DNA of 64,000 bases from Vitrella brassicaformis CCMP3155 (taxonomy: Eukaryota; Protista; Chromerida), in assembly GCA_001179505.1 (NCBI GenBank), contig CDMY01000182.1:112301-176300 (forward strand). The letters are read 5' to 3'. The translations under genes were made by a program, and so were the position numbers. Shown here in pieces: positions 5,963 to 53,899 of the stretch. Each line of letters begins with the position of its first letter. The first letter of the stretch is position 1. The notes beneath the pieces were generated by a model that was not told the DNA's origin, ran no database searches, and saw only the letters and a list, made by a program, of their open reading frames with translations.

Positions 5963-6262
5963 NNNNNNNNNNNNNNNNNNNNNNNNNNNNNNNNNNNNNN
6001 NNNNNNNNNNNNNNNNNNNNNNNNNNNNNNNNNNNNNNNNNNNNNNNNNNNNNNNNNNNNNNNNNNNNNNNNNNNNNNNNNNNNNNNNNNNNNNNNNNNN
6101 NNNNNNNNNNNNNNNNNNNNNNNNNNNNNNNNNNNNNNNNNNNNNNNNNNNNNNNNNNNNNNNNNNNNNNNNNNNNNNNNNNNNNNNNNNNNNNNNNNNN
6201 NNNNNNNNNNNNNNNNNNNNNNNNNNNNNNNNNNNNNNNNNNNNNNNNNNNNNNNNNNNNNN
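5963..6262. other. Assembly gap (300 N) flanked by poly-G runs
   Basis: N run read directly; G tracts on both sides. Confidence 0.98.
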
Positions 6263-6711
6263 GGGGGGGGGCATCTGCACCGCACTTTTTGACCCGCAAT
6301 TGCCGCTCGCTCCCCCCCCCTCTTCCCCCGCTCTCTCGTGTTATGTGTGTATGATTTGCTATACGACGACCTTTGAACTTTCGGACACGCCACCAATATA
6401 TATATAGACTATTTCAAAGCGCACATGAAGTCTTTTTGTTTTTTTGTTTTTCATTTTCATTTTCATTTTCGTTTTTCATTATCGGTTCCAATTCTCATTT
6501 CCACCACGCCCCGCTAGCACTCAAGTCCCGTTTCACTAGTGATTATCGCTGCCCGGCCGTTGCGTTTGTTTGGTCATTTTCACTGTTACTTTCTGCGTCG
6601 TGCTGCAAGTTTAATCCCATGTCTCCCCACCTTTTTTTTTCTTTTAAACCTCATTTTGTGACTGCAAAGCAGCACGACGAATGTGCATTAATCTCGCCAT
6701 TAGAAGGAAGA

Positions 6712-6955
6712 AGGAACCAACGAAGAGGCTGGCCATGAATGACTTATCCATTGTCTCTGTCTTGTCCATCCACCAGTCCAGGTGATGATCTTCCCTAACA
6801 TGATCTTCCCTAACATAGCAGAGATCATTGCTAAGGAGGTGAGCATCTCTCCGTCTTCTTCTGCGATGCCCATTCTGGAGAAATGCGCGGGTATTCTCGT
6901 GCTGATTACGATTGAAGCCTTCATGGAGACCATTCTGATTACCGTCCGTGAGACA
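6712..6955 (+). pseudogene. Isolated fragment of the multi-TM gene family (near-identical inverted copy of ~15537-15772)
   Basis: Matches the reverse complement of 15537-15772 (…IIAKEVSISPSSSAMPILEKCAGILVLITIEAFMETILITV…) and carries an internal 15 bp duplication gatcttccctaacat. Confidence 0.7.
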
Positions 6956-7816
6956 TGATCACAATGGTGGACACACAACACACATGACACCCACACACAT
7001 GGATGGATGGATGGATGTGCACTCAGTTACCTTCGCAGCCTCGCACGCTCCTTAATGCGCTCCCATGCCCACCCCTCGCTGCCCTCCCTCTCCGCCTCCT
7101 TCTCCTCCTCTACATCGTCCTCTGACTGGTCATCAAAATCCTCTCTCTGTCTCTGTGGGCTGCGCAGAGGAGGCTTCTTGCTGCCCCCTCCCCCCAAGTT
7201 GTGAGCCACGTACGAGTGGCAGTGAACAGGTGCGTGTTTGTGTTATACCACTGGTAGGCAAGAGAGAGAGAATGAGCTCGTCCTCACCATCATCAGAGGC
7301 TGAGGTTACAGGTAAAGGCTCACAGACATATCATCGTCTCTTGCGATCCCTCTCTATGTCCTCCGCCGTCGCTGAGGATGGTGCATGCTGGCGTGTTTGT
7401 CGCGTGATTGAGAGTTGGTCGTTTGACGCAGTTCATTTCATGAGAGACCGACAGACTCTACCTGCCGTTACGCTATGACTCATCAATGTGTTTCCACAGG
7501 AGCCCAGATTTGCTAGGGTTTGTTACGTAATACAAGATCTCCATCTCTAAACCACCCACATATCCACGGACACACACACACACACACACACGTGTCAAAA
7601 ATCGCATACATTCGTGCAGCCATTCGTTCTTCGTCACAGGAGAGAGGGGAGGGGAACGGGGGTATCAACAGTGTATGTTAACATGCACGCGCCAGTCAGT
7701 CAGTCAGTCACAAAAATCTAGCAGCATCTCATCGACCTTCTTACATAGACGCGCTCACCCACGCACACGAGGGAGGCCGTGCGCACGCCGAGACATCCTG
7801 GACGCCCTCACGCCAT

Positions 7817-12469: not shown

Positions 12470-12784
12470 GGCAGAGCCAGCCACGCACTTCATTCACGGA
12501 CGCCCGAGATGCGATGTGACGCAGATCAAAATCCGCACCGGATGTCAAACTCTGACCTTTTTTGGCTTGGCCAGCGTCTTATTGCAAGCGCATGACCTCG
12601 GATCTTGGCGAAAAAGGTGGTCGCCTCTTGCGAGCTTTTCAATACAGGGTGTTTCAATACAGCAACGCGCATTGCGAAGAAGCAGAGCGCTGCCAGGCCT
12701 TGTTGCAATCGATTAAGTTTGTTTTAAGTCCGCGAAGGCGCAGAGATGTCGTCGTCGTCGAGTGGCAGCGGAGATCCGAAGAAG

Positions 12785-13775
12785 ATGCGTCTGCTGTCGC
12801 TGACACTGTACCGCTGGAAGCCCGACCACCCGGTGGAGCTGTCGAGTCACTATGACCTCTCCCACTTCCCCTTCTTCCAGCGCAAGACGGTGCAGGAGCA
12901 CATTCGGTTCCACAGCCGGCTGATATGCGCCCGCACGCCCGTCGGCCGCCGCCAGTCGGTGGAGTTCGAGCAGAACCTCGGCAACTGCCACGTGTACGTG
13001 CACCCATCGGGCCTCGCAGCCGCCGTACTCACCAGCGCAGAGTACCCAATGCGGGTGGCTTTCTCGATGCTCAGCGAAGTCCTCAGGCTATTCCAAGACG
13101 TATGTAAGCACGGAGCGGAGAGCATTTGTCGCTCTGCATCGCACCCTACCATTGTGGGAGAGAGGGAGGGAGGGAGGGAGGGGCATGGCACGCACAGCAT
13201 AACACAAACACTGATGATTTTTCCAATTTTCCTCGTGTGTTTTGTGTTGTGTTGTGTGCAGAAGTATGGTGGTCAGTGGGAGAACACCGACGCCGACAGG
13301 TCCATCGGCTTCACGGAGGGCGACGAGTACGTCAAGAAGTTCCAAAACCCCGCAGAGGCTGACAAACTCACCAAAGTGCAAAAGGACCTGGACGAGGTCA
13401 GTCAGCCACCGGTGGCATGCCATGCCATCCACATGGGGCAGGCAGCAGACATTAAAACAAAACGACCGATTGATCAGCGCATGTGCGTGTGTGTACGTGT
13501 GGGTGTAGGTGAAGGACGTGATGCTCAAGTCCATAGGTGAGATGCGCTGCTCGTTAGCTACACACACACACACTCATCCACAGACACACCAGACCCTTGT
13601 GTGTGACGTGACCTGGCGTGTGTGTTGTCGTCCGTCCATTCATTTATCAGAGGATTTGCTGCAGCGTGGCGAGACGCTCGATTCGCTCATGCAGAAGAGC
13701 ACTGACCTCAGCCAGACGTCATACCAATTCTATCGGACAGCCAAGAAGAACAACCAATGCTGTCAGCTTTACTGA
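12785..13775 (+). CDS. YKT6: YKT6 longin R-SNARE (alternative start 12746)
   Basis: Longin domain (DLSHFPFFQRKTVQEHIRF…EYPMRVAF), ADKLTKVQKDLDEV, SNARE LLQRGETLDSLMQKSTDLS and C-terminal di-cysteine prenylation motif CCQLY*. Confidence 0.95.
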
Positions 13776-14833: not shown

Positions 14834-17801
14834 CTACTTCTCTGCTGCAGTCAGACAAGTTGCCACTTCTCTCAGCAGTCGCAGACTTTCTCTTAGCTGC
14901 ACAGAAGGAGCGTACCCGTTGGCATGTCGCCTAGTCAGTTTGATGAAGAATATGATTTGGTCTATGAGCTGCATGAGATGGAGCAATGGGTTCTTGAGGC
15001 TGACTTGTCAGACTGGCACATATATGGTTAACCAACCGTATGGCACCAGGTCCACATTGCCAAATGCCACAAGTATAATCCCACTCATCAGGCGCAGACA
15101 GATCGAGGTTAACACGGACGCACCGAGAAATTGGACTTTTCTACGCTCGTGTCTTCTTAAGAAGGGCCCAGGCCAAGAGACACAAGCGAGAGCCGAAACC
15201 ACACACAAATGCAGTCCGTATGTAATGTGACACGTCTGCGCGGTGAGCGCCCTGTCTGCTTCATTCATCAAAAGGCAGGACTGACGTAAGGACAGAGTAT
15301 CGATTCGATCTCCTCAAATCGCTGCTTGCTAGCGACACGCCCTGTATAACCCCTTACCAAGTAGAAGAAAAGAAAAAGAGTCATAGCTTGTGCAGTCCAC
15401 CATAGCACGACTATTCTCAGCCACATCACGCCCCTCTCGCGCTCGGCTCGTAAGACGGGTAAATTGTGCAGACGCACCAGCAGCTGTACAAGAGAGAGAG
15501 ACGAGGCTTGTCTACGGTGCATTCACCGGCTGTCTCAATGTCTCACGGACGGTAATCAGAATGGTCTCCATGAAGGCTTCAATCGTAATCAGCACGAGAA
15601 TACCCGCGCATTTCTCCAGAATGGGCATCGCAGAAGAAGACGGAGAGATGCTTACCTCCTTAGCAATGATCTCTAATATGTCAGCGAAGATCATCACCTG
15701 GACAGGTGGATGGACAAGACAGAGACAATGGATAAGTCATCATGGCCGGCCTCTTCGTTGGTTTCCTCTACCGTGGACTCCGTTAGCAGCGTGATCGACA
15801 CTTGGTCGGCAACGGCCCTCATGTATCGCGGCGAGATGCTCTGTGTGGCAAAAGCGACACTCATTGACACCTGTCGAAGCAGCCCGGAGTCGCCTCTGCT
15901 GAATGAAGCGCGACGGTCGGCCGATGTTTCCCCATGTCTCGCCTTCAATGCCGAAAGTCTTGCTCTTGCCCATCGCCTTGAGCCCACAAACATCAGAATG
16001 CCTAAAAGACGGAGCGCGTCCAAACATGTGCACAAGGTATCCATCCTTACGGTACGGTTGCATCGTGTCCGTGACAAAGTCATACCTGCATTCGAGAATT
16101 GGCATGCTAACATGACAGAAAAGTATCGCACTGGCTCCATTTGTTGACTTACATTGCGAAGAGAAAGGAATTAAGCGCCTTACTCGATAGCCTCTCCATC
16201 TTGGCTTGCATCAATCTTGCATCAGACTTGCGGGCACGCAATGAAATAATCGATGTGGTTCAAGGTCCATTATCAAGTCACCTTGGAACAATTAAGTAGG
16301 AAAACGTGATGTAATTGAGTAGCAGTGACGGCGTCAAGGGGTGACCTTGCTGAAGCAGCCACAAGGAGAATGTCACAGCTCACATGGGTATATTGAGCAG
16401 AGCGTCGTTAGATGTGCGTGTGCTTTCTCTTGCCTTGACTGAGCGGCAAACATAGCTTGCCAAACTCATGAATGGAGCGCCAGTGATCATTGCCACTATC
16501 ACTATCCTTCCACGCTCGCTGTCGCTTGTCGCTACGGCCCCGCGAGGAAGGAACACAGTAATCGCGAGAAACACCCACACCTGGAAGAGAGTCAAAGAGT
16601 GGGGCCAATTGAATCGTTCACATTCACACAGAGGCTTTATCAACAAGTAAAGACACACCTGGAAGAGGCATCTGGGAAGGAAACAGTGGACAATACACTG
16701 TGAGACACGTATTGATCATCGTATTGGTGCGATTATTGCCTACATCAGAGTCATCTGGGTCGCATACTCCTTTTTTCTTGCGAAGTGCTCTGTCTGAGCT
16801 GCGCGATAAAGCACCAGGGCGCGATACAAATGGTTAATGCCCAATGCAATACAGCGATCATACGCCTCCATTTTTGGGGCCAGCCTTGAAAATGGGAAAC
16901 GCTGAGTAGAACGCAGCATATCAACATAGGACCGAAAATGGGTAAGGTCCGGCGCATGCGAATCAGGCTGCGTCGCAGACAAGGGCCCTCGATCAGCAGG
17001 GAGAAAACCACGGGAAAGCTGAGGATTGTCAACACTCGCCTGGCAATATCGAGCAGTATCCAGCTTCGATTCCATGAGTCTCTCGACTGGACGCATCCAA
17101 AATAGAGGCCGACTCCGAGAGCTGACAATAATCCCGCGACGATAAAGGCAATTGTGACTTGACGGAGCACGCTCCATCCCGCACGCCGCAGTGTGATCGA
17201 GAGGGCTTCTGGAGTGTATCTCGCGACAACGACCTCCTCTGTTGTCCCGTCATGCCTTCTGATGGGGCGGTATTCAAGGGTGCTGTCGAACTCCTCGTGC
17301 GCCGCAAAGTCAGCCACAGTCCGAAACTCACGCACCGACTCTGTTATCTCTCTCTGGGCAAATCAGAAGACAAAAAATACTGCATGCCTTCTGCGTCTGT
17401 GTGAGTTTGTGTTTGTGTTTGGGTGTGTGTCTTACCTCCTCCTTCCGAAGTGCCTTAGCTTGCCCTCGAGCTTGCCCGCCCTCTGCCAAATTGATGTCCT
17501 CACAGCTGCGCTGCCAGCCCATTTTGGTGTCCTCAGCAGCCCCAGGCTGACCCTCACTAATCGCGATGGTGGCCGTCCTGTCCGTTGCTGTCCCGGTATC
17601 GCACACATGATCCTCTCCTCCTCTCGGGAGGTCCCGATCACCGTTCAATGACATCATTGGTGGCTTGGGGGAGAACCATGTTAGAGTGAGGCTTCTGATG
17701 CGTGATGCGCCCTCGGTCCGGGACATCCGCCTTTCCTTCAAGTTGTCTTGAGTTGCCTGGGGGCCCCCACCCTGTGGACCGGCGATCGCGCGGAGACGCA
17801 T
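14834..17801 (-). pseudogene. Multi-pass membrane protein family, copy A (frameshift and premature stops)
   Basis: EFRTVADFAAHEEFDSTLEYRPI…, FLPRGAVATS…, ISPRYMRAVADQ and LLVRLHNLPVL align with copy C. Frameshift/stops near 16740-16790 and an in-frame TGA at 15008. Start uncertain. Confidence 0.6.
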
Positions 17802-18390
17802 GATGGCTACGATGTCAGCGACAGAAAGGTCCGTTGTTTGTCCTCTCTCACCCACCGGCGGGATAGTACGGGTTTCTCAAGTGAACGGCGATGATGAGCC
17901 AGATCTCGATGTCACCAGCATCTCATCCGATCGGCAAGCCACAGACTCACTGGATGAAGGCAAGAGGACAGTCGATGGCGAGCACCTCGTGCAGAACGAC
18001 CACTGGCATCAGACCGACACTGCGCAGCCCGTCGATTGCGCCACGCACCTTGTCAATATCCAAGGTGATGAAGGACACGGCGCTGAGCACCGAGCCATCT
18101 ACCGGACAGCACTCTCATCGACAAGCACCGCCTTGACGCTGGCAGAGACGCTCACTGGCCCGCAGAAGAAGAAGCAAACGCACAGTCATCCCCCTGAGGA
18201 GCTTATGAATGGTGACGAACGAGACACGGAGGGAGATGTTGGCTTAAGGGATTCAGGCTCTGGCAGTCAGCTGCACTGCGAGGAGCGTGCGACAGCAGAG
18301 TTTATGTATGAAGAACATCCAACTACGCTAGAGTACAAGGCGATATCCCTACCCGACGGCAGCACAACAGAGGTCCTTGTCGGCAACGGT
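17800..18390 (+). pseudogene. Multi-pass membrane protein family, copy B, truncated by the AT-rich viral insert
   Basis: N-terminus VVCPLSPTGGIVRV matches copy C (TVCPLSPVRGTVRL). EFMYEEHPTTLEYKAISLPDGSTTEVLVG matches copies A/C; homology stops abruptly at ~18390. Confidence 0.7.
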
Positions 18391-18391
18391 A

Positions 18392-18755
18392 TGTTCCACC
18401 TCCACAGCAACCACCACCACCTCCTCCCCCACCACAAATTCCTCCCGCTAATGGAGGTTTGCCTGAACCATTAGAAGAACCGCCTTATGAACCGCAACCT
18501 AAACCAATTGAACCGCCACCTCCTGCATTACCCGAACCAGCACCCGAACCACCAACTAATTTTCTACCCGATTATCAACCAGAACCTGAAACAGGGGCAA
18601 GACAAATAGCACCACCTGCACCGGAGCCACTACCTGACATTCCACCCGAATGGAACCCTCCTGCAGCAGCCTATTAGCCACCAACAACACACAGGACAAC
18701 AAAAGCCCCAAGAGTAGGTGAGAATATACAACCACTACTACAAATTCCACGTTAA
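18392..18755 (+). pseudogene. Proline-rich viral ORF, 3' part, with in-frame TAG at 18675-18677
   Basis: VPPPQQPPPPPPPPQIPPANGGLPEPLEEPP…PPAAAY*PPTTHRTTKAPRVGENIQPLLQIPR*; the frame continues past the TAG to TAA 18753-18755. Confidence 0.55.
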
Positions 18756-18777
18756 TTTATTCTATTACCGCATCTGT

Positions 18778-19010
18778 AAAAAGAGTTTCAACTTTAATAA
18801 GAAGTATTTATGATTTTGCCTGTGTGCTTCGCCAATGTGGCCATGCCAGTCTTGCAATTCTTCACGAAGAGGTATTTAATGATGGCAAAAAAAATTCAGA
18901 ATTTTATCAATATTTTGATAATGCTACCAATAACTATGGCTTTATTTCAGTGAATGCACGAAGTCCTAACACAGAAATAAAGGAAAATTACTGTGATTAT
19001 AAATCCTTTG
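18778..19010 (+). pseudogene. Packaging ATPase C-terminal half, lying on the opposite strand (inverted segment)
   Basis: KRVSTLIRSIYDFACVLRQCGHASLAILHEEVFNDGKKNSEFYQYFDNATNNYGFISVNARSPNTEIKENYCDYKSF resembles the A32 C-terminal pattern (IR.N.DY…EE.F…F..AT.NYGF…YK). Confidence 0.75.
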
Positions 19011-19426
19011 ACAGACTGACTTATCTGAATAATACTCACATTCATGTGTCCAACAATAGTAAGTAATCTCTCAAATTCCTTACTTCTCGTATCATCCATC
19101 GTAGCAATACTATCATCAAGTATTAAAAGCACTCGTCTTCGCTTTTTTGTCTTTTCTTGATGCTCTGCTAACGCTTTTATCTGCTCTTCTGTTATTTTGG
19201 TTAAAATTTTATGACGTTTTGCACCATTCTTCAACCAGAGTTCCGGCTGAACTGTCACTATAAGCTCATCGTCAAACTTATTTCTATCCCGCAAATACCG
19301 ATATAATGATAATGCAATTAGGGTTTTTCCGGTATTTATGCGTCCCGTAATTAATAATATCCAACACTTCTTCTCGTTCGCTATCTTATTGAATAGCTCT
19401 CGGTAGTTTTGTATTTTTTCGTGCAT
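19011..19426 (-). pseudogene. A32/FtsK-HerA-family viral DNA packaging ATPase, N-terminal half
   Basis: Walker A GRINTGKT, Walker B VLLILDD, and the family motif H.N.S.I.I.Q (GHMNVSIIQISQ). Confidence 0.85.
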
Positions 19427-19451
19427 CTCATTAATATTATATATATAAGTG

Positions 19452-19637
19452 CTACTTTTTCTTCGGTTTCATTTTTGTATTCACTACTCGTTCAATCCGC
19501 CGAGCCACCTGCTCCGCATTTTTTACTTTGGCATTTTTTAGACGCTTCAAAAAAAAATGATATAATATCTTTCCATCATTATTATCCTTGTTTGTATTTT
19601 TGTTTTTTTTCAGTCGTTGAAGCAAATTATTAAGCAT
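19452..19637 (-). CDS. Small Lys/Asn-rich basic ORF in the viral insert
   Basis: 61 aa ORF MLNNLLQRLKKNK…MKPKKK, same strand as and 25 bp upstream of the ATPase. Confidence 0.4.
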   Translation of the reverse strand: MLNNLLQRLKKNKNTNKDNNDGKILYHFFLKRLKNAKVKNAEQVARRIERVVNTKMKPKKK

Positions 19638-20304
19638 GATATAGAATTAATTAAATACTTATATGGTAAAATTCAAAAGAGCAACAGAAATTTTTTAATT
19701 GACTTGAACAAAGTATTTAAAATTCAACGCTGTGCACCGTGACGTGACAATATATGACAGTTTCCACCTGCCCTACCACCATCTGTTCATTTTCTTGCCA
19801 TTCACCATCTGTTCATTGCTCATTGCCTTTCCATTTCTTTTTCTCAGTTGTCACGGGTACATTTTTCATCTCGTGGCAGTCGTCTTTTAATTGTCAATCA
19901 TCTCTTGCTGCTTTTTCTTTCTTTTGAGGCACAGGCAATTGTTCCCTTTCTCCTCGAGCCACGCTTGTTAACACTAAACCCCGTCCACTCTCCCTGTGAG
20001 AGTTGACCGTTAGCAGCTTCAGCCGTTCTTTTATTTGGCTCGTACAGTAAATTCCGTATACCATCCTTTGGTGAGGTGTGAACCTCTGCGGTGTGTGACA
20101 GTGGATCACCACGCTTTCCACTGAACTATGGTGGCAGGTGTGCAATTGCGGGTCTGCTCAATATGGAGGAGGTGGTAAATCACTTACTGAGCTCGCATCG
20201 TCTTTTCAGCGGGTCTCTTGTCGTTTGTGACGTCGCATCTGCCAGTTTCGCTTGTCAGTTGAGTTCCAGTCAACGTTTCCTCTGTTTTCATCCATTGACA
20301 AGCG

Positions 20305-21014
20305 ATGGCGTGGACGACACAGACCCAGTTGCCCTTCTACATCCTGATTTTGGGCGTTCACGCCGTTGTGGTGCATCCGCTGTATCACAGCAAGGTTATT
20401 GACCGCAACAGCAATGACCCCTTCCCGCACAGCTAGTGGGTAGAGGAGATCAATGACATCATTGCGGCCGCTGTGCAAAAGGTGCCTCGCAAGGCGTTGG
20501 CGGAGCAGTTGGCGGAGGGAAGCAGCAGCAGCAACAGCAAGAAGAAACGACCAAGTGTGAACCTCGCCGACTAAGACCACACATGTCGGACCCACGGGTG
20601 CAGCAACAAAGTGGGGTCGGGTCGGTGCAAGGCGTGCCACTGCTGTCACAAGGCGGTGTGCAAGACGCGCGGAAATGCCCACCTCTACCACGGCAACGAG
20701 GTGGTGCAGATGGTTTTGAACAAGATGAAAACGATGGGCATGATGACCGAGGGCAACTTTGTGTGCCTCAACTGCGTCAAGGTCAAGCTCATTCAGGTGC
20801 GTTCGTATGTATCTGTGTGTGCATTCGTGCCCTCTGTACGTACACGTGTGTGTGTGCGCGTGTGTCTGTGTGTCAGGAGTTGCAGACTATCAGTGCGTCC
20901 AACGCCACCAAGGACCTGTGCGAGAACAAGACGATGCAGCAGTTGATGCAGGAGTACTACAATGAGGACAACAACGGAGCTGCCCTCATGCAGGCGTTAT
21001 TTAGTGTGTGGTAG
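20305..21014 (+). pseudogene. Cys/His-rich putative Zn-binding protein, two in-frame stops
   Basis: One frame from ATG 20305 has TAG 20434 and TAA 20572, then C-x4-C…C-x2-CHCC-x3-C…C-x2-C, one intron, and ends …ALFSVW*. Confidence 0.45.
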
Positions 21015-21865: not shown

Positions 21866-24543
21866 GGATGTCCAAGAATACTGTTTGTCCTCTCTCACCC
21901 GTGCGGGGTACTGTGAGACTTTGCCAATGAGATGGCGATGGACCCTGCGATGATGTGTCTGATGTGAGCAGCAACTCGGCCCAGCCCAGCCTTGGAAACA
22001 ATGGACGAACGACAGAATGATAATGAGGACAAGGGGGCAGCTGATGGCGACCACATCATGATCAACGCACACGTGGGGGCGACCGTGGGATTCTTTCAAA
22101 AGGATGGCGATGAAGCATGCGGTGATGTGTCTGATGTGAGCAGCAACTCGGCCCAGCCCAGCCTTGGAAACAATTTGCTGAACGAACGACAGAATGACAA
22201 TGAGGACAAGGGGGCAGCTGATGGCGACCACATCATGATCAACGCACACGTGGGGGGGACCGTGAGATTCTTTCAAGAGGATGGCGATGAAGCATGCAGT
22301 AATGTGTCTGATGTGAGCAGCAACTCGGCCCAGCCCAGCCTTGGAACCAATCTGCTGGACGACCAGCAGAATGACAATAAGGACAAGGGGGCAGCTGATG
22401 GCGACCACATCATGATCAGCGCACACGTGCGGGGGACTGTGAGACTCCTTCCACGGGATGGCGATGGACCATGCGGTAATGTGTCTGATGTGAACAGCAA
22501 CTCGTCCCAGCCGAGGCTTGCAACCAATTTGATGGAAGACAAAGAGAATGACAATAAGGACAAGGGGACAGCTGATAGCGACCACATCAAGATCACAGCG
22601 TACAAGCATGAGGACGAAGGACGACGAGCGTCAATCAGCTCAATCACAGCCGCCGCAACGACAGGGCAGACGAGCTTTGCAGTCAACGACAGCAACAAGG
22701 CGGACGAAAAGCGAGAAGATACAGAAGAGGGCCGTGTGTTACGTCGCGAGAAGCGGGCGAGCGCTGCATTGATTCGTGAGTTCCGTGAGGCGGCTGGCTA
22801 CAACGCTGCTTACGAGGAGTTTCCCACGACGCTCGAGTACAAGGCGTTGCAATCTGATGACAGCAAACGAGAGGTCCTGATGGGTGCATATTTCAGCCCT
22901 GAACCAGTTTTAGTGACTGTCAGGCGAGCCATGAAAGTCGTTGTGCTGCAGGTTGCGATGGCGCTCGCTCTTACGGCCGTTATCATAAGTTACGCCCCCG
23001 CCCTGTGGCACACGTGTCAATCAAGCGTATTTGGTCCCGCATTCGACATCATTCGTCGTACTGTGAGGGTTTTCCTGTTTGTGATGGTCCTCTTGCAAAC
23101 TACTGATGGACATCATTTACAGAAGATCATCTCTCGGCTGAAGAAATCCTGGCTCATCCTTGCTGTCCCACTAGTGCTGAATATTGTGATCGCTGTCGCT
23201 TATTGGAGACACTGGAATTGTCAATGGAGAACACATCTTATCGGTCCTTTGCTGTGGTGCTGCTTACTCTTATGCCCATACTTGTATTTCCGTCATGCTG
23301 GTGGATCGCTGGGTATCAAGCGTAAACGGCTGTATGCGATCAAACTCGGCGCGGCATGCACGTTGGGTGTTCTTTTGGACGCGGTCTCATTTCAGCTGTT
23401 CTTTCCCCGTGCAGCCACTACATACACCGACGGGAGCAAAAGTCAGCTGGCGCTCGTATTCGTAGCGATCGGGTGGTCAATTTCCTCGCTGGTCAACAAA
23501 CTTATCAGATCAATCCGAGTACATACAGCTATAGCCCAGCTAGAAAACAAAATGAGTATCATGATTAGATATGCATATGTGCGTATACTTGTTTGGTTGC
23601 ATAGGAAGGGCCGCCAACATTCAATGTTCAGCCGACAGCTATCATGGCGATACCCAATGTAATAGCTCCTCGACTCCTCCAATCCAAGATGGCTACTTTT
23701 AGCACCAAACTCTTATACTCCATCTTGATCTCACTGTAGGTTGGCTATGGAGAAAAAAGATTCTAAGACAACTGCTAATGCCTTCTTTCTTTCTTACTTT
23801 TTCATGCTTTCAGGTTAGATAAACCCCTTCATTACCGACATCTTACTGCCATACTGTGCGTCAGTTAGATACAGACGACTGGATTCCTTGAGTGCTTGCA
23901 TTCTACCTGTTCCCCTCTGCATGCAGGGATACTGTTCTATATTGCCGCTAGAAGATTTTTCAAGGGCGGCTGCTGCACTAAAATCAAGTCCGCGTCACAA
24001 GAGAGAAAGCGATCTTTGGTGAGTGACAATATGGCTTTTGGAGACAATGTTCAATCCATTCGGCTATCTGCAGATGAAGACAACGAGGCGGTAACACATC
24101 AACACAGCGGCGCGGTGAGCAGTAATCTCCAGCGGCAGAATACCACCATGACAGCCAGCCTTTCTTTTATCGGCACAAAACCAGCGTCTTCATCTTACAC
24201 CGTCAACCTGCAGTCGGCTCTCGCACCTCTGGAAGTCTCCCCTCGGTACTTGAGAGCTTTGGCAGACCAGATTCACATCTGGTCATTTACTGAAATTATG
24301 GCCCTTCTATTTACACACCTGATGATGCTAATTACCAAGTACATGCACAATGGTGCTTCGTCTATCAGCGTTATGCAGGACATTGCAGGCCTACTTCTGT
24401 TGGTCAGCATGGAATGTGCCTTTGAGGTGATGCTTTTACTTGTGCTGGTCCGCCAGAACAATCTCCCGATGCTATCATCTGCTTACGAGAAGGGTGTGCT
24501 GCGCTGCAGCTTTTTGGTGCAAGCATGTATAGCAATCGCCTAG
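21866..24543 (+). pseudogene. Multi-pass membrane protein family, copy C (long ORF 22001-23662 plus downstream part to 24543)
   Basis: 556 aa ORF with several hydrophobic helices and AYEEFPTTLEYKAL. Upstream MSKNTVCPLSP start is cut by TGA 21928 and a 5 nt deletion. The C-terminal part (VSPRYLRALADQ…LVRQNNLPML) is separated by a degenerate stretch. Confidence 0.6.
21900..22600 (+). repeat. ~180 bp (60 aa) coding tandem repeat, nearly four units
   Basis: Unit DGDEACGDVSDVSSNSAQPSLGNNLLNERQNDNEDKGAADGDHIMINAHVGGTVRFFQE repeated with divergence. Confidence 0.9.
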
Positions 24544-35229: not shown

Positions 35230-38200
35230 TCAGGTTCTCCGCCTGATGGGCTTCACTCTCAGGCCCCTCGGCTTGTAACTGACGACGCCACACGTGCGTC
35301 CCACACAGCCAGCCAGCATCCCTGTGTGTGTTGGTTGCTCTGTCTGTCTGTCTGTCTGTCTGTCGGTGGGCGTTGCTTACGTGATGGCGAAGTACGGCTC
35401 TGGCTCTGCGGTGACATCGAACTCATACCGACGGAGCAGCCCAGCAAGGGTCAGACGAATCTGTGGCAGTCACGCACAGACACACACACGCGCGCACCGC
35501 CCCAGGGGCATGCAGGACGATCGGCCAAAGCTTCGAGTGTGTTTGTGCGTGCGGCCTCACTGCACTGCCCCCACCCACCTCGATGGTGGCCAAGTTCTGC
35601 CCAATGCAGGCTCTCGGGCCGATGCCGAACGGCCGCAGCACATTGTTGTAGACCTTGAGCTGCTCCTCGCTGCTCTCCAGCCACCGCTCGGGACGAAAGG
35701 CCTTACCGTCACCCCAACTGTGAGTTCATCACCCACCCACCCACCACAAGGGGGGATACCACAAAACAGCACACACACACGCAACAACACGTTGCACGTG
35801 TGTGTGCGTCTCGTCTTGTCTTTGGGGTGTCGGTATGTGTGTGGGTGTGTATGTGTATCTGTGGTACATGCATACATACACACGTACATGTCGGCGGCGG
35901 TGAATGCCGGGAGGAAGGGGAAGGCGATGTCGTATCCGGCGGGGATGTAGTAGTCGACCCCCTTCGATGTCAACTTGACGCTTCGGTCGAGGGTGCGGAA
36001 TTGACCGTTGGACGCCACCGTCGTGCTGGCAGGGGGGCAGGGAGAGAGAAGGGGACACGGACGCAAACACACACACACACACACGTGCATGTATATGTAT
36101 ATATATATATATATGTGAGTGTGTGTATATATATATATGTATACATATACATGCACGTGTGTGTGTGTGTGTGTGTGTTCGCATACATACACATACATTC
36201 TCATGAGCTCTTTGACGCAGGCATTGAAGTACTTGAGGTCTGACAGCTCCTCATACGTAGGGAATGGGCCCACGAAACTGGCGCCATCCAACTCCTGCAC
36301 ACACACACACATATACACAGAGAGAGAGAAAGGCGGAAGGGACGCCCATCTAGAGGCGCTTAAGATCTGTCGCTGCGTCTGTCCTCATGTGTGAGTGTCA
36401 TGTGTCGTGTGTCGGACCTCTTGGAGCTTCTTGAGCACACGGGGATTGCTGCCGAGGTGATAGATGCCCCACGCCAAAGTATAACCAGTAGTGTCATGCC
36501 TGTCAGACACAACACGGCCACTCTGTATGGCGACCGGTACTTAGTTCGTGCGGGCCGTCGCCTCGCCGTCCGACATCTTACTTACCCGGCGTTGATCAGA
36601 GTGTAGATGTCGGAGAGGCGAGCAAACTCGGTCTCATAGGGAGCGTTGTGGATGTAGGACATGATCGACGTCGGCTGCCACCAGGCTTTTTCGTTCATTC
36701 ATTCAAGCGTGTGTTGGCGCCGTGTTGTGTTGTGTTGTGTGTGTATCTCCCTCTCTTTTTTGCGTACGTCTCTTTGTTCGGCGGGCGTGTTGAGGTAATG
36801 TTGGTAGATGCGCTGGACGATCTCGCGGTAGGTCTGCTGTGCGTCGTTGAACTTGCGCATTCCATCGTTCCACGGCATGTAGGGCCTGCACGCTCAGACC
36901 ACAAACACACACACACGATATCCGAGCGACGAGGGAGCGTGTGTGTGTGCGCGTGTCAATCAACGCATGTGCGACTGCCAAGCATAGCATACCTGAAAGG
37001 GTTCAGGACCTGTTGGGCGAACTCCTTGAATATGGTGTCGACGCTCTCGAGAATGGCCAGCGCCTCGCCATTGCGCTCCTCGTCGAAGGCGTGGAACGGA
37101 TACCTTCCGGCAAGAATATGTCAAAACAACGATCACAAAAAACACGTTCAATACTAGATGCACATGGCTAAGACACGCACGCACGCACGCACACAAACAA
37201 ACGCACCCAAGTGCGATTTCGCCTATGACGTCGATCGTAACCGGACGGCCCACTGGTCCATGGGCACCGACACGCCCTTCTCGGCCGCACTGTCCAGCGC
37301 GTCGCAGAAGCCGCCCAGCACACGATGGTACGCGGGGACCTTGCTGGCAAGCACCTTGGTGCTGCGCACACACACACACATACCACACACGCACACGCGA
37401 CACATACATAGCCAGATGAAGACAAAAAAATGCATGTGTGTGTTGACGTAGGGGTGTGTGTGTGGGTGTGGGTGGGTGGGTGGGTGTTAGTGATCACTCA
37501 CGCGAATGCGGGGGCTAGTGCCTTACGAATGGGGTGCCAGCCCTCGCCTGTGGTCTTGCGCGAGAAGATGGAGACGTCCCTCGGTGTGAACGGGCCACGG
37601 CGGCGGAGGTCGAAGCTCTTGAAGAGCGAGGTCTTCTCGAGACCATCTGATGCACCACAGTAACACACACACACACACACACACACAGATGCATGAGTGC
37701 ATCCAGTGTGCAAATGTGATTTGGGGAGGACATCACACACACACACACACACCTGCCCCGAGCAGCTCTGGGAAGCAGCTCCAGTCCGTGCAGACGTAGA
37801 CACGCTTGCCCAGCGGCAGCTGATAACAAAACACCTCGCTCTTCAACTCATCGCGCCACTGCTCGTATCTGACCACACACATATCACACGCAAACACACA
37901 ATTGAGCCAGGCCGCTGTGTGTTGTCTCTCAATCGAGCGGGCCGGCTCACAGGTGCGGCACTTTGGGGTCTGCGAAAAGTGCGAGAGACTCGGTGACGGA
38001 CATCGGCACACGGGGCGGGTCGCGCAGCGCCTTCCTCTCCTCGGCGGTGATCTCATGCACGGGTCTGGTCCCCTGCTTAGCGGCGGTGGCGGCATCTTTG
38101 GTTGTGTTGCTGTTTGTGGCGGCCTGGGCCCTCTTGCGGTGCAGCCGTATGAGCTCCTCGAGGCCGACGAGGCACACCACGGCCGCCGAGATGCCGGCAA

Positions 38201-49610: not shown

Positions 49611-52600
49611 ATGGCGATAGCAGAGGAGATGCACATCGACCGCATCCTCATTCTGGACTTCGGCAGCCAGTACAGCCACCTCATCGTCAGGAGGTGCCGC
49701 GAGATCGGCGTCTATGCCGAACTCATGAGATGCGACACTAACATCGACGACATACGCAACTTTAGCGCCAAAGGTGGGAGGGACATGGGAGGAGGGTCGG
49801 TTCGATGATCACGGCAAATGTGTGTCTGTGTGTCAGGTATCATTTTGTCTGGCGGGCCATACTCTGTGTATGAGGAGGAGGCGCCCCACTGCGTGCCGGC
49901 CTTCTGGCAGTACGTCGACCAGACACACATGCCGCTCCTCGGCATCTGCTATGGACTGCAGGTCAGTCGGTACCCCTAGGGGATCTTTCCATCCGTCCAG
50001 ACGGACAGACAGCACGCCCTCACGCACTCCTAGGTGCACTCTCTGTGCGTGTGTGTGTTGTGTGTGTTGTGCAGGAGATGACGTATGCGTTGAAGGGCAA
50101 GGTGTCTGCGTCGGCCAAGCGCGAGTACGGCCATGCGGAGCTCATGATGAAGGAACTCAACGCCGAAGAGAGAAAGGTATGGTGGGCCAGCCACTCAGCA
50201 CTGCGTCATTTCATTCATGCGTCGGTTCCATGGATCTCTCCCTCTGTCAGCTCGACAATCAGGCCAACCACTCCCCTGCAGTCAACGGCGTCCCGACTGC
50301 CCCGAGGGACAGCGAGCCAGACCCTAACCAGGTGCCACACACACGGAACCAGCCACCACACAATACTCGTTGCTTCTGGATGGATGGATGGATGGATGAC
50401 GATTCATTCTGTCTGTCTGTCTGTCTGCCTGGTTGGTTGTGTGTGTGGTCGGATCACCCATCAGGTGCATGACAACCCGACGGCGGTGTCGCCCAACGTG
50501 CACCGGCTGTTCCAGGGGCTGGTGCACAACCCCACTCGCGTCTGGATGTCGCACGGAGACAAAGTCACACAACTTGCACCAGGTGAGGTGGGGTGGGTGG
50601 GGGGACACACACACACAGACATACGCACCACAACACATACGCACGCACACAAATGTGCACGTGACTGACAAGCACCAATGTGACGATCGGCAATTTGTGT
50701 TGTGTGTGGTGTTGTGTAGGTTTCCAGGCGATAGCAGTGACGCCCAGCAGTGAGTATGCCTGCGTGGCGCACCTCGAGAAACAAATGTTCGGACTGCAGT
50801 TCCACCCAGAGGTCAGTCAGTGCTGACACACAGATAGACACACAGACAGACAGACAGACCCACCGTATCTGTGTGTGTGTGCAGGTGACGCACACAGACG
50901 AGGGCACCCAGCTGATTCGCAACTTCATCCTCAAGATCTGCGGTGCGGTGCCGTCGTGGAATATGAAGAACTTCGCACACACGGAAATGGAGCGACTCAG
51001 ACGACAGGCAAGACACCACGCCACATCACACGCCATGCATAGAACCACACACAGCCACGCACAGAGAGGCGGGGAGAGAGAGATAGGGTATTGTCTGCCT
51101 TTGTTGTGTGGTTGGCTGGTTGCAGATCGGCGAGCGTCACGTGTTGGGTGCGCTGAGCGGCGGGGTGGACTCTACTGTGGCGGCGGCCCTGCTGCACAAA
51201 GCCATCGGACACAAGTTCCATGGTACGTGTGTGTGTGGGTGCGTGGGTGGGTGCGTGTGTCTCAGAATGAGCTTTCGGTGTTTTGGTGTCTTTCTGTGTA
51301 TTCTCGTGTGTGTGTTCTGTAGGCGTGTTGATTGACACTGGTTTGCTGAGAATGCACGAGGGGCCGGAGGTCATCCAGAGGCTCAAACAGTGAGGAGCAA
51401 ACCAGACACGGCAGCCAGCCAGCCCAGCCCGTCTAGATGTGTGTATGTTATGTGTGTTCTGTAGGCACATCCCCGGCCTGCAGGTGGACTGCATCGACGC
51501 CACCCAGGAGTTCTTCGACGCACTCAAGGGTACGTACCTACGCACCCACCCACCCACGCACACAGGCAGGCAGGCAGGGAGGCATCGACCAGGCCCACAA
51601 CACAGATGCACACCAACAGACAGACAAGCACAGAGAGAGAAGTGGAAACGTATCGCATGTATGTTTGTGTGTCTGTCTGTCTGTCTGTCTGTGTGTGTGT
51701 GCTGGCAGGTGTGACCGATCCCGAGAAGAAGCGCAAGATCATCGGGGGTCTGTTCATCGAGTGCTTCGAGAAGGCCACCAAGGAGCTACACCTTCCCGTA
51801 GAAGGCGGCTTCCTCCTGCAGGCACACCACACCACACCACACACACCTAGACCTCCCCCCCTCTCTCTCTCTCAACACACACGCGCCCATATGCTGATGC
51901 GCCTCTCTCTGCCTCTCTGTGTGTCTGTCTGTCTCTCTCTGTGTGTGTGTGTGTGCGCAGGGCACACTGTATCCTGATGTGATTGAGTCGATATCGTTCA
52001 AGGGCCCCTCGGCGACCATCAAGACGCACCACAACGTGGGGGGCCTCCCGGCCAAGATGAAGCTGCAGGTGCTCGAGCCACTCAGGGAGCTCTTCAAAGG
52101 TAGGTACCCTCGCTGACACGATCGTAGCCTCTACTGCCTGTTCCTGTGCCTGTGCGTGTATGGATTCCTTCCCCGTGTGTTGTGTGGCGGTGTGCAGACG
52201 AGGTGCGCGCATTGGGGATGGAGCTGGGCATTGACCGCTCGTCTGTCTGGCGGCACCCCTTCCCCGGTGAGCCACCTGAGCGGAGCGTGCCTCGATCCAT
52301 CCACTCATGCTCTATGATATGATGTTGTTGTATGTTTGTGTGTGTGTCAGGTCCTGGGCTGGCCATCCGGATCCTCGGCGAGATCACCCGAGAGCGGGCT
52401 GACATCCTGCGACAGGGTTCGTGTGCACCCAATGCGCACACTCTCACAGACAGATACTCACTCTCACAGCAACGATTGTCTGTCTGTCTGTCTCGTCTGA
52501 GTGCAGCGGATGACATATTCCTGGATGAGATCCGCAAGAGCGGCGACTATGACAAGATCGGTCAGGCCTTTGTGGTGCTCCTCCCAGACGTCAAGTCAGT

Positions 52601-52963
52601 CGGCGTCATGGGCGACTCAAGAACATACGAAATGGTACGGTACCATCTCAGACATACACACACTCACACAGACGGCCGCAAAGGGGGAAGTGGATGTGCC
52701 GTGCTGCGTGTGTCAGGCGTGTTGCATCCGTGCGGTGGCGACGAGCGATTTCATGACGGCTGACTGGTACCACATGCCCTACGATGTCCTGGTCAGCCAC
52801 ACACACACACATACAGAGAGAGAGAGAGATCCATATGTCTTGTGTGTGTGTGTGTTTGGATCAGGCGCGTTGCTCGAGCCGCATCATCAACGAGGTGACA
52901 GGCATCAACAGGGTCTGCTACGACATCTCATCCAAACCACCAGCCACCATCGAATGGGAATAA
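49611..52963 (+). CDS. guaA: GMP synthase (glutamine-hydrolysing)
   Basis: [82 protein letters not shown] and [11 protein letters not shown]. Confidence 0.97.
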
Positions 52964-53899
52964 CTCAACAAACACCTCACACACTTAGTCACTTACACAG
53001 ACAGGCATACAGGCCATCTCCATCTCTCTCTCTCTCTCTCTCTCCATCCATGTCGCTCTCGCTCTGTCTGCGTACGCCCCGCCCATACATATGCGCACGA
53101 CCGACACGCCACAGCTCTTTTTTCCTCAGCTTGCTGGCTGCACCACACCCACTTGGCTGGCTGAGCTGATGTGGTGTGGCGGTTGGTGTCTTCTCCCTCC
53201 ACCCCTCAGCCGGTGCTGGTTGGTCATTTCCGTGGTTTTTCGTACCCTCCTGGATGAATGGATGGATGGATGACTGTGAAGGCGTGAGTGTGTCGCATCG
53301 TTCAGGAAGGAGCGATCTCTGTGTGCGTGTGTGTGTGTGTGTGTGGCTGCTGTGTCTCGTGCGAGTGAGACGAGCGAGCTTCTTGACGTGGTGTCATTTG
53401 CAGCTGTCATGACACACACAGTCCAGGGACAGCCGAACCAACCCTGCCTCTGACTGACGGTGGCCATGACATTACCTGTGTGTGTGCACGTGGTCTTTCC
53501 GTCCAGAAAGCTCTACAAGTGCCCCGGATCTATCTCTTATACACCCACCCACTCAACTCACTCACACACACGCACGCCACGCGTCGCGTACCCATAAACT
53601 GCTCATGTCCATCCATCCATCCATCCATTCGTCCCGCACAGCAAAAAACAGAAGGCACAGAGAGCCTGCCTTCCCATCCAGGTCTCTCTTGTGTGTATGG
53701 TCTCGCTGACTCTCGCATGGCAAACAAAACCAGCACCAATCGCAGCTCTCAGCTCACGCCCCCCGCTCTCCTGCCTTAGTATATTATATACACAGCAATG
53801 GTACACATGTTGGTGGTGTGCACCACTCAGCTCGTGTGCGGGGGGTACAGGATTCCATCCATCCATCCATCCATCTCCATGTGCCCAGACACATGCCGA

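Follow-up and report, generated by a model that had tools for sequence, protein, structure and literature searches.

One of about four endogenous virus copies in the genome of Vitrella brassicaformis carries the C-terminal half of its A32-type ATPase gene in what is very probably a fixed inverted orientation, likely the product of one template-switch accident, and we infer that this copy is dead. The evidence comes from a stretch of 64,000 nucleotides (the window) from contig CDMY01000182.1 of this organism, a photosynthetic, free-living relative of the apicomplexans (PMC4501334). The first-pass annotation of the window, made from the sequence alone, had described an A32-type ATPase gene split and inactivated by an internal inversion, with microhomology as the mechanism or, alternatively, a switchable segment. 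The split and the inactivation stand; microhomology as the mechanism and the switch are not supported. The ATPase of the relic is a pseudogene descended from the A32/FtsK-HerA family, not a working member of it.

Table 1. Positions of the viral relic, the split gene and neighbouring features in the window
Feature	Position	Strand	Basis
AT-rich multi-copy viral relic, ~1.35 kb	18390..19742		GC, contig depth, paralog divergence points; ends approximate
Host tandem-family gene, broken off at relic start	17800..18390	+	tblastn of paralog 22001-23659
Proline-rich viral ORF, convergent to ATPase, 5' truncated	18387..18755	+	no Pfam or PHROG match
Ancestral ATPase 3' end, last 4 codons + TAA (18759-18757), now cut off	18757..18772	-	joints and translation by coordinates
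TCTGT, one of two inverted 5-mer copies, single in collinear copies	18773..18777	+	joints and arithmetic
Inverted block, 238 bp including both duplicated ends	18773..19010	+	profile; opposite-strand joints in paralogous contigs
ORF in present form, 159 aa: N-half + 20 residues read from inverted block	18947..19426	-	ORF and profile
TG, duplicated as CA at 18771-18772, single in collinear copies	19009..19010	+	joint 18772-19008
Second 5-mer copy (ACAGA on plus strand), continuous with N-half	19011..19015	-	joints and arithmetic
ATPase N-half, 139 codons including junction codon; Walker A, Walker B, sensor Gln	19011..19426	-	Pox_A32; profile
Codon 126, Gly; 13/13 aligned relatives have an invariant Arg here (RH motif)	19049..19051	-	alignment and profile
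Lys/Asn-rich short frame upstream of ATPase, putative gene	19452..19646	-	no Pfam match; one weak PHROG match, E 0.005

The two halves of the ATPase gene

The minus-strand ORF is A32-like and loses its similarity partway, as the annotation had it: Pfam Pox_A32 (PF04665) matches residues 75–140 with an E-value of 1.4e-7, and nothing is matched after residue ~140. The N-half scores 31.0–31.7 bits against a curated cut-off of 22.8, and its residues 1–139 are grouped with A32 clusters by the Atlas (0.95). The C-half alone has no Pfam match and gives only sub-0.9 noise in the Atlas; its reading frame at 18779–19009 on the plus strand (77 aa) is 34% identical over 64 aa to P0016, the nearest relative.

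We analyzed both halves with a profile of 13 full-length relatives, aligned from the 18 found in a search with the N-half alone; the other five, P0025, P0027, P0028, P0030 and P0033, are 446–1163 aa long, for the most part match in several stretches and were not included. As the C-half played no part in choosing the relatives, the profile provides an independent test of it. The N-half falls on profile positions 14–151 with 122 bits, and the C-half, which had been proposed to lie on the plus strand, falls on positions 152–219 with 43.8 bits, where the best of 1000 shuffles reaches 7.6 bits. The two adjoin on the profile with neither gap nor overlap, and the alignment of the restored protein is not confined to its N-terminal part. 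As judged by the remaining 1584 six-frame pieces of the window (excluding the two pieces that hold the halves), background scores on the profile do not exceed 5.6 bits. In pairwise comparisons the C-half is matched by 7 of the 13 relatives at E<0.05, each match beginning at the end of the N-half alignment. Based on these alignments, the halves belong to a single ATPase and adjoin within it.

The window copy aligns with K37 and D109–D110, which are invariant in the relatives and mark membership of the A32/FtsK-HerA family. Its Gln137 aligns with the invariant Q141, so that the polar sensor residue of the third motif is present. This motif, described in PMC11703096, combines a polar sensor residue with a conserved arginine, the arginine finger; an invariant arginine of the relatives that is likely this finger is replaced by Gly126 in the window copy. 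A difference-free contig of 61 nt in run X6 covers 19021–19081 and is centred on 19051, the first base of codon 126, which is the pattern that a one-base difference in another copy would leave; Gly126 may be specific to the window copy.

A structure model of P0016 (pLDDT 87.9) has STIV/STIV2 B204 as its top PDB match, and giant-virus packaging ATPases rank first when it is compared with BFVD. It is for this natural relative that a RecA-like fold with viral packaging ATPases as its nearest matches is seen. Mapped onto this model, the break would remove three strands and three helices from the fold. The remaining 159-aa frame would lack these last elements together with the likely arginine finger, and for that reason would presumably not package DNA. 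Other decay of the window copy comprises truncation at both ends, Gly126 and an early stop in the neighbouring ORF.

Breakpoints and origin of the inversion

Copy number and orientation were evaluated with contigs from 6 of the 15 listed read runs (contigs only); the sediment runs X10 and X11 contribute small shares, X10 without coverage of the segment. In X1 the segment depth of 304.3 is the sum of four near-equal parts (77.1 + 81.2 + 74.8 + 71.2), and four near-equal parts recur in X2 and X3. This gives about four genomic copies, of which that in the window is inverted; the other three have diverged from it and keep the collinear order. Added up, the depths of the collinear 5' joints come to 223.5 in X1, where 227.2 is expected from the three paralogs; in X2 the corresponding values are 72.3 and 80.2. 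All collinear joints listed belong to diverged paralogs, with at least 3 differences each, and their depths add up to the three paralogs.

One paralog shows 12 differences from the window in ~181 nt, with a further 4 gap letters; the other two show 23 and 21 in 161 nt. Variants were assigned to paralogs A, B and C from matching depth values, and the assignment is to be read as such. Third positions of the C-half frame hold 17 of the 31 listed substitutions (p=0.011). A stop codon is found in one paralog and a +2/−2 frameshift pair in another; the third has neither over the 161 nt seen, and may reside in a longer, near-intact element.

At joints 18773–19016 and 18778–19011, five letters fit both sides. 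Three types of collinear 3' joint are found: (i) 18772–19008 (X3, X6), where +19008 passes directly to −18772 with two letters fitting both sides; (ii) 18765–19010 (an X4 contig), where +19010 is joined to −18765 with five letters between; and (iii) 18765–19004, for which the letters between are not given. Types (i) and (ii) fall 7 nt short of what a plain flip would give. The annotation had restored a 224-aa protein by flipping 18778–19010, and its arithmetic holds, but the product is not the original gene: with two 3' joint types 7 nt shorter, the ancestral protein had ~220 aa and a different four-residue tail. Profile scores cannot separate the 220-aa and 224-aa models (180.1 and 181.1 bits, respectively); the reads alone do so. 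The ancestral stop lies 1 nt from the TAA of the convergent proline-rich frame, and the related locus L009 shows the same tail-to-tail abutting layout.

The TCTGT and ACAGA copies that the annotation had reported are both present in the window. Since two of the collinear joint types are shorter, however, the 5-nt inverted repeat was absent from the ancestral arrangement. The window sequence is recovered exactly from the collinear form if TCTGT (5 nt) and TG (2 nt) are duplicated and the 238-bp block is inverted. Sequences that were ancestrally single are duplicated in inverted orientation at both breakpoints, with a net gain of 7 nt, and the 5-mer pair and the second, 2-nt repeat are products of the event rather than the microhomology that mediated it. 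The longer imperfect inverted repeat that had been noted, inside the segment, is modest, with matches of 7/10, 9/14 and 10/20 letters, values reached by 0.6%, 0.4% and 2.6% of gene position pairs, respectively.

We propose, at about an even chance, a template switch of order 3-1-4-2 as the cause. The polymerase would leave its template just after TCTGT, switch to the opposite strand immediately beyond TG, at a place where the next 10 bases include 7 that resemble the expected ones, copy back through TCTGT and return just before TG. In the four-point template-switch model this type needs no prior repeat, but it is rare, with 1% of the events in a human–chimp set (PMC5453318). Homology is lacking at the return point, and the outbound switch is followed directly by a mismatched base; for these reasons template switching is not demonstrated over end-joining.

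Two staggered double-strand breaks 238 bp apart would leave the same fixed lesion if their 5-nt and 2-nt overhangs were filled in and the ends joined the other way round, and we regard them as a serious candidate that falls somewhat short of an even chance. Fill-in of the two overhangs also yields the exact window sequence, neither switch point has exact homology, and there is precedent in Drosophila, where the inverted duplications at the breakpoints of 17 of 29 inversions were ascribed to staggered breaks (PMC1885836). Against this, two breaks are required within 238 bp, and the inner quasi-repeat at the outbound junction is left unexplained. It is because of this similarity of 7/10 letters after the outbound switch, a level found in 0.6% of position pairs, that we lean to the template switch. 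Reciprocal exchange across a pre-existing TCTGT/ACAGA repeat, with the 224-aa protein as the ancestral form, is very improbable: the 5-mer pair exists and the flip keeps the frame, but two of the three collinear 3' joint types, being 7 nt short, contradict it.

The window arrangement and the question of a switch

The element is multi-copy, and false lesions are common in short-read assemblies of protist endogenous viruses (PMC10120064), which makes an artefact from collapsed near-identical copies worth considering. We judge it highly unlikely, because independently assembled, difference-free contigs cross both junctions at single-copy depth. Among the pieces listed, the contig across the left junction (18743–18850) has a depth of 57.9 in X1 and 27 in X2, and that across the right junction (18828–19040) has 77.1 in X1, 30 in X2 and 9.8 in X3; the unique flank in X1 has 62.3. 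On their shorter side these contigs reach 30 letters past the junction, whereas the bridging rule asks for 31. The left junction is listed in X1 and X2 only, that is, in one sample, which is possibly the source of the assembly; the right junction is crossed in two samples from two studies. The window copy also has its own alleles at 18820, 18872, 18908 and 18938. A misassembly is unlikely on these grounds.

A reversible switch of the packaging ATPase at this locus, driven by a recombinase or by microhomology and offered by the annotation as one reading, would draw on the in-frame 224-aa re-flip through TCTGT/ACAGA and on the occurrence of both orientations in the genome, but the collinear order belongs to diverged paralogs, the ancestral state had no such repeat, the window copy is itself truncated, has Gly for the invariant Arg and has lost the rest of the virus, no recombinase family was found among the 25 frames scanned with Pfam (a scan that is not exhaustive), and neither the re-flipped 3' joint (+19015 to −18772) nor a difference-free collinear joint is among the joints listed in the 6 runs (X10 without coverage of the segment). 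Contig assembly drops rare variants, and it is because contigs cannot show them that we leave the switch a very small chance.

The fixed inversion in a dead viral copy is ordinary pseudogene damage and has little importance by itself. It does advise caution, in that short inverted repeats at breakpoints should not be taken for switch sites.

The relic, its relatives and known systems

The window is intron-rich eukaryotic DNA with a GC of 0.55; the relic has a GC of 0.37 and is the sole AT-rich island besides an N gap (300 nt, 5963–6262). Summed contig depth in X1 rises from 62 to 300–640 inside it, and paralogous contigs diverge from the window before ~18387–18390 and after 19742. Because the contigs of other copies continue beyond both ends, unlike the window, the relic is truncated. 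No terminal inverted repeats or target duplication >5 nt are found at its ends. Low GC and multi-copy insertion in a protist genome, traits of Polinton-like viruses and virophages, are both seen, but the relic has neither a capsid gene nor termini by which it could be assigned to the Polinton-like viruses. The proline-rich ORF has a TAG at 18675–18677, after which the same frame continues to a TAA at 18753–18755; one paralog carries 6 additional nt around 18675–18681.

On the host side, tblastn with the paralog at 22001–23659 matches 17854–18384 and nothing after 19742, so the interrupted gene is not resumed beyond the relic. Its family, without Pfam match, has three diverged members at 16751–17335 (−), 17800–18390 (+) and 21992–23662 (+), two of them with hydrophobic C-terminal parts and the last with tandem repeats of ~175 nt at 21896–22595. 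An open stretch of 121 codons at 18312–18677 (+) is a truncated host frame that runs into the viral proline-rich frame across the left boundary. Additional multi-copy host stretches lie at 19987–20400 and 18310–18384, and the segments 6706–6956 and 15538–15772 form an inverted pair of 90% identity. Host genes in the window include a Ykt6-like SNARE (12746–13775), a cytochrome P450 exon (~35560–36312) and a GMP synthase exon (~52510–53169). The Ykt6 exon at 12746–13537 has 100% identity to a V. brassicaformis CCMP3155 protein over 105 aa.

The nearest relatives of the window ATPase are metagenomic proteins of at most 42% identity. All 13 aligned relatives pass the Pox_A32 cut-off. Four of them (P0017, P0019, P0020, P0021) also pass the Pfam cut-off for Zot, which hints at kinship with assembly ATPases of the filamentous-phage type. 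A PDB sequence search returned no A32 relative. Word-based homolog searches were empty for the N-half ORF (0/33 candidates) and for the C-half against longer proteins (0/9); an intact copy annotated in Vitrella thus did not come up, and this counts as weak evidence.

Related loci were found neither with P0001 in viral or metagenome contigs nor with P0016 in viral contigs; with alignment A2 as the query, 7 viral and 5 metagenome loci were obtained. L008, L009 and, weakly, L012 match the window N-half, and at E 0.05 the C-half is matched by none of the 12. A Pfam scan of 14 frames of these loci recognized no capsid, and L008 and L009, the nearest with context, span only 1.0 and 1.6 kb. Upstream of the ATPase, both L008 (134–1032) and L009 (2–1567) have a small gene whose C-terminus is hydrophobic and then basic. 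In L009, a convergent Gln/Pro-containing gene has its stop abutting that of the ATPase, which is apparently frameshifted. The neighbour genes of the relic have no real similarity to those of L008 and L009.

Alveolates are known to harbour degraded endogenous viruses of low GC that have A32 ATPases, and “elements from Vitrella” have been grouped with Tlr1 and OmPLV by capsid (PMC12721341). This is the sole paper naming Vitrella among the matches listed in literature searches on such elements; its supplements may list the present one. That the relic represents an undescribed lineage of small chromerid viruses outside the known Polinton-like groups is a tentative and rather doubtful reading, for which the distant metagenomic relatives (≤42%), several of them Zot-like, and the tail-to-tail layout of ATPase and low-complexity gene shared with the nearest loci, and the paralog that is free of stops and frameshifts over 161 nt may speak. 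The relic points to a small endogenous virus family in a free-living sister of the apicomplexans, the full form of which is not seen here.

Compared with known systems, the relic resembles the Polinton-like viruses of alveolates (Oxyrrhis OmPLV, Tlr1 and the Vitrella elements; PMC12721341) in being low-GC, multi-copy and fragmented and in having an A32 ATPase, and differs from them in that its 1.35 kb hold no capsid, polymerase, recombinase or terminal repeat. With the A32/FtsK-HerA packaging ATPases (PF04665; STIV B204; vaccinia A32) the window copy has in common Walker A, Walker B, the sensor Gln and a size of ~220 aa; unlike them, it is interrupted by the inversion and carries Gly where the arginine finger would likely be. 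The Hin/Gin/Fim systems are invertible-segment switches, and the point in common with them is the presence in DNA of two orientations of an intragenic segment. A recombinase switch involves inverted sites in both orientations and conservative exchange; in Vitrella the exchange is not conservative (+7 nt), the collinear copies have the 5-mer once, the ancestral state lacks the repeat, the two orientations are on different, diverged copies and no recombinase is seen. A literature search found no report of invertible or phase-variable virophage ATPases.

The inversion is closest to events of type 3-1-4-2 (PMC5453318) and to staggered-break inversions (PMC1885836), with which it shares an inverted spacer flanked by two new inverted repeats, and in which the duplications give the direction of change. 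The Vitrella case differs in that the 238-bp block lies in a protist viral pseudogene, with three collinear paralogs as outgroups in the same genome. It is a clean micro-inversion, resolved to the base and polarized by these paralogs, in which the flanking “microhomology” is the scar of the event and not its cause.
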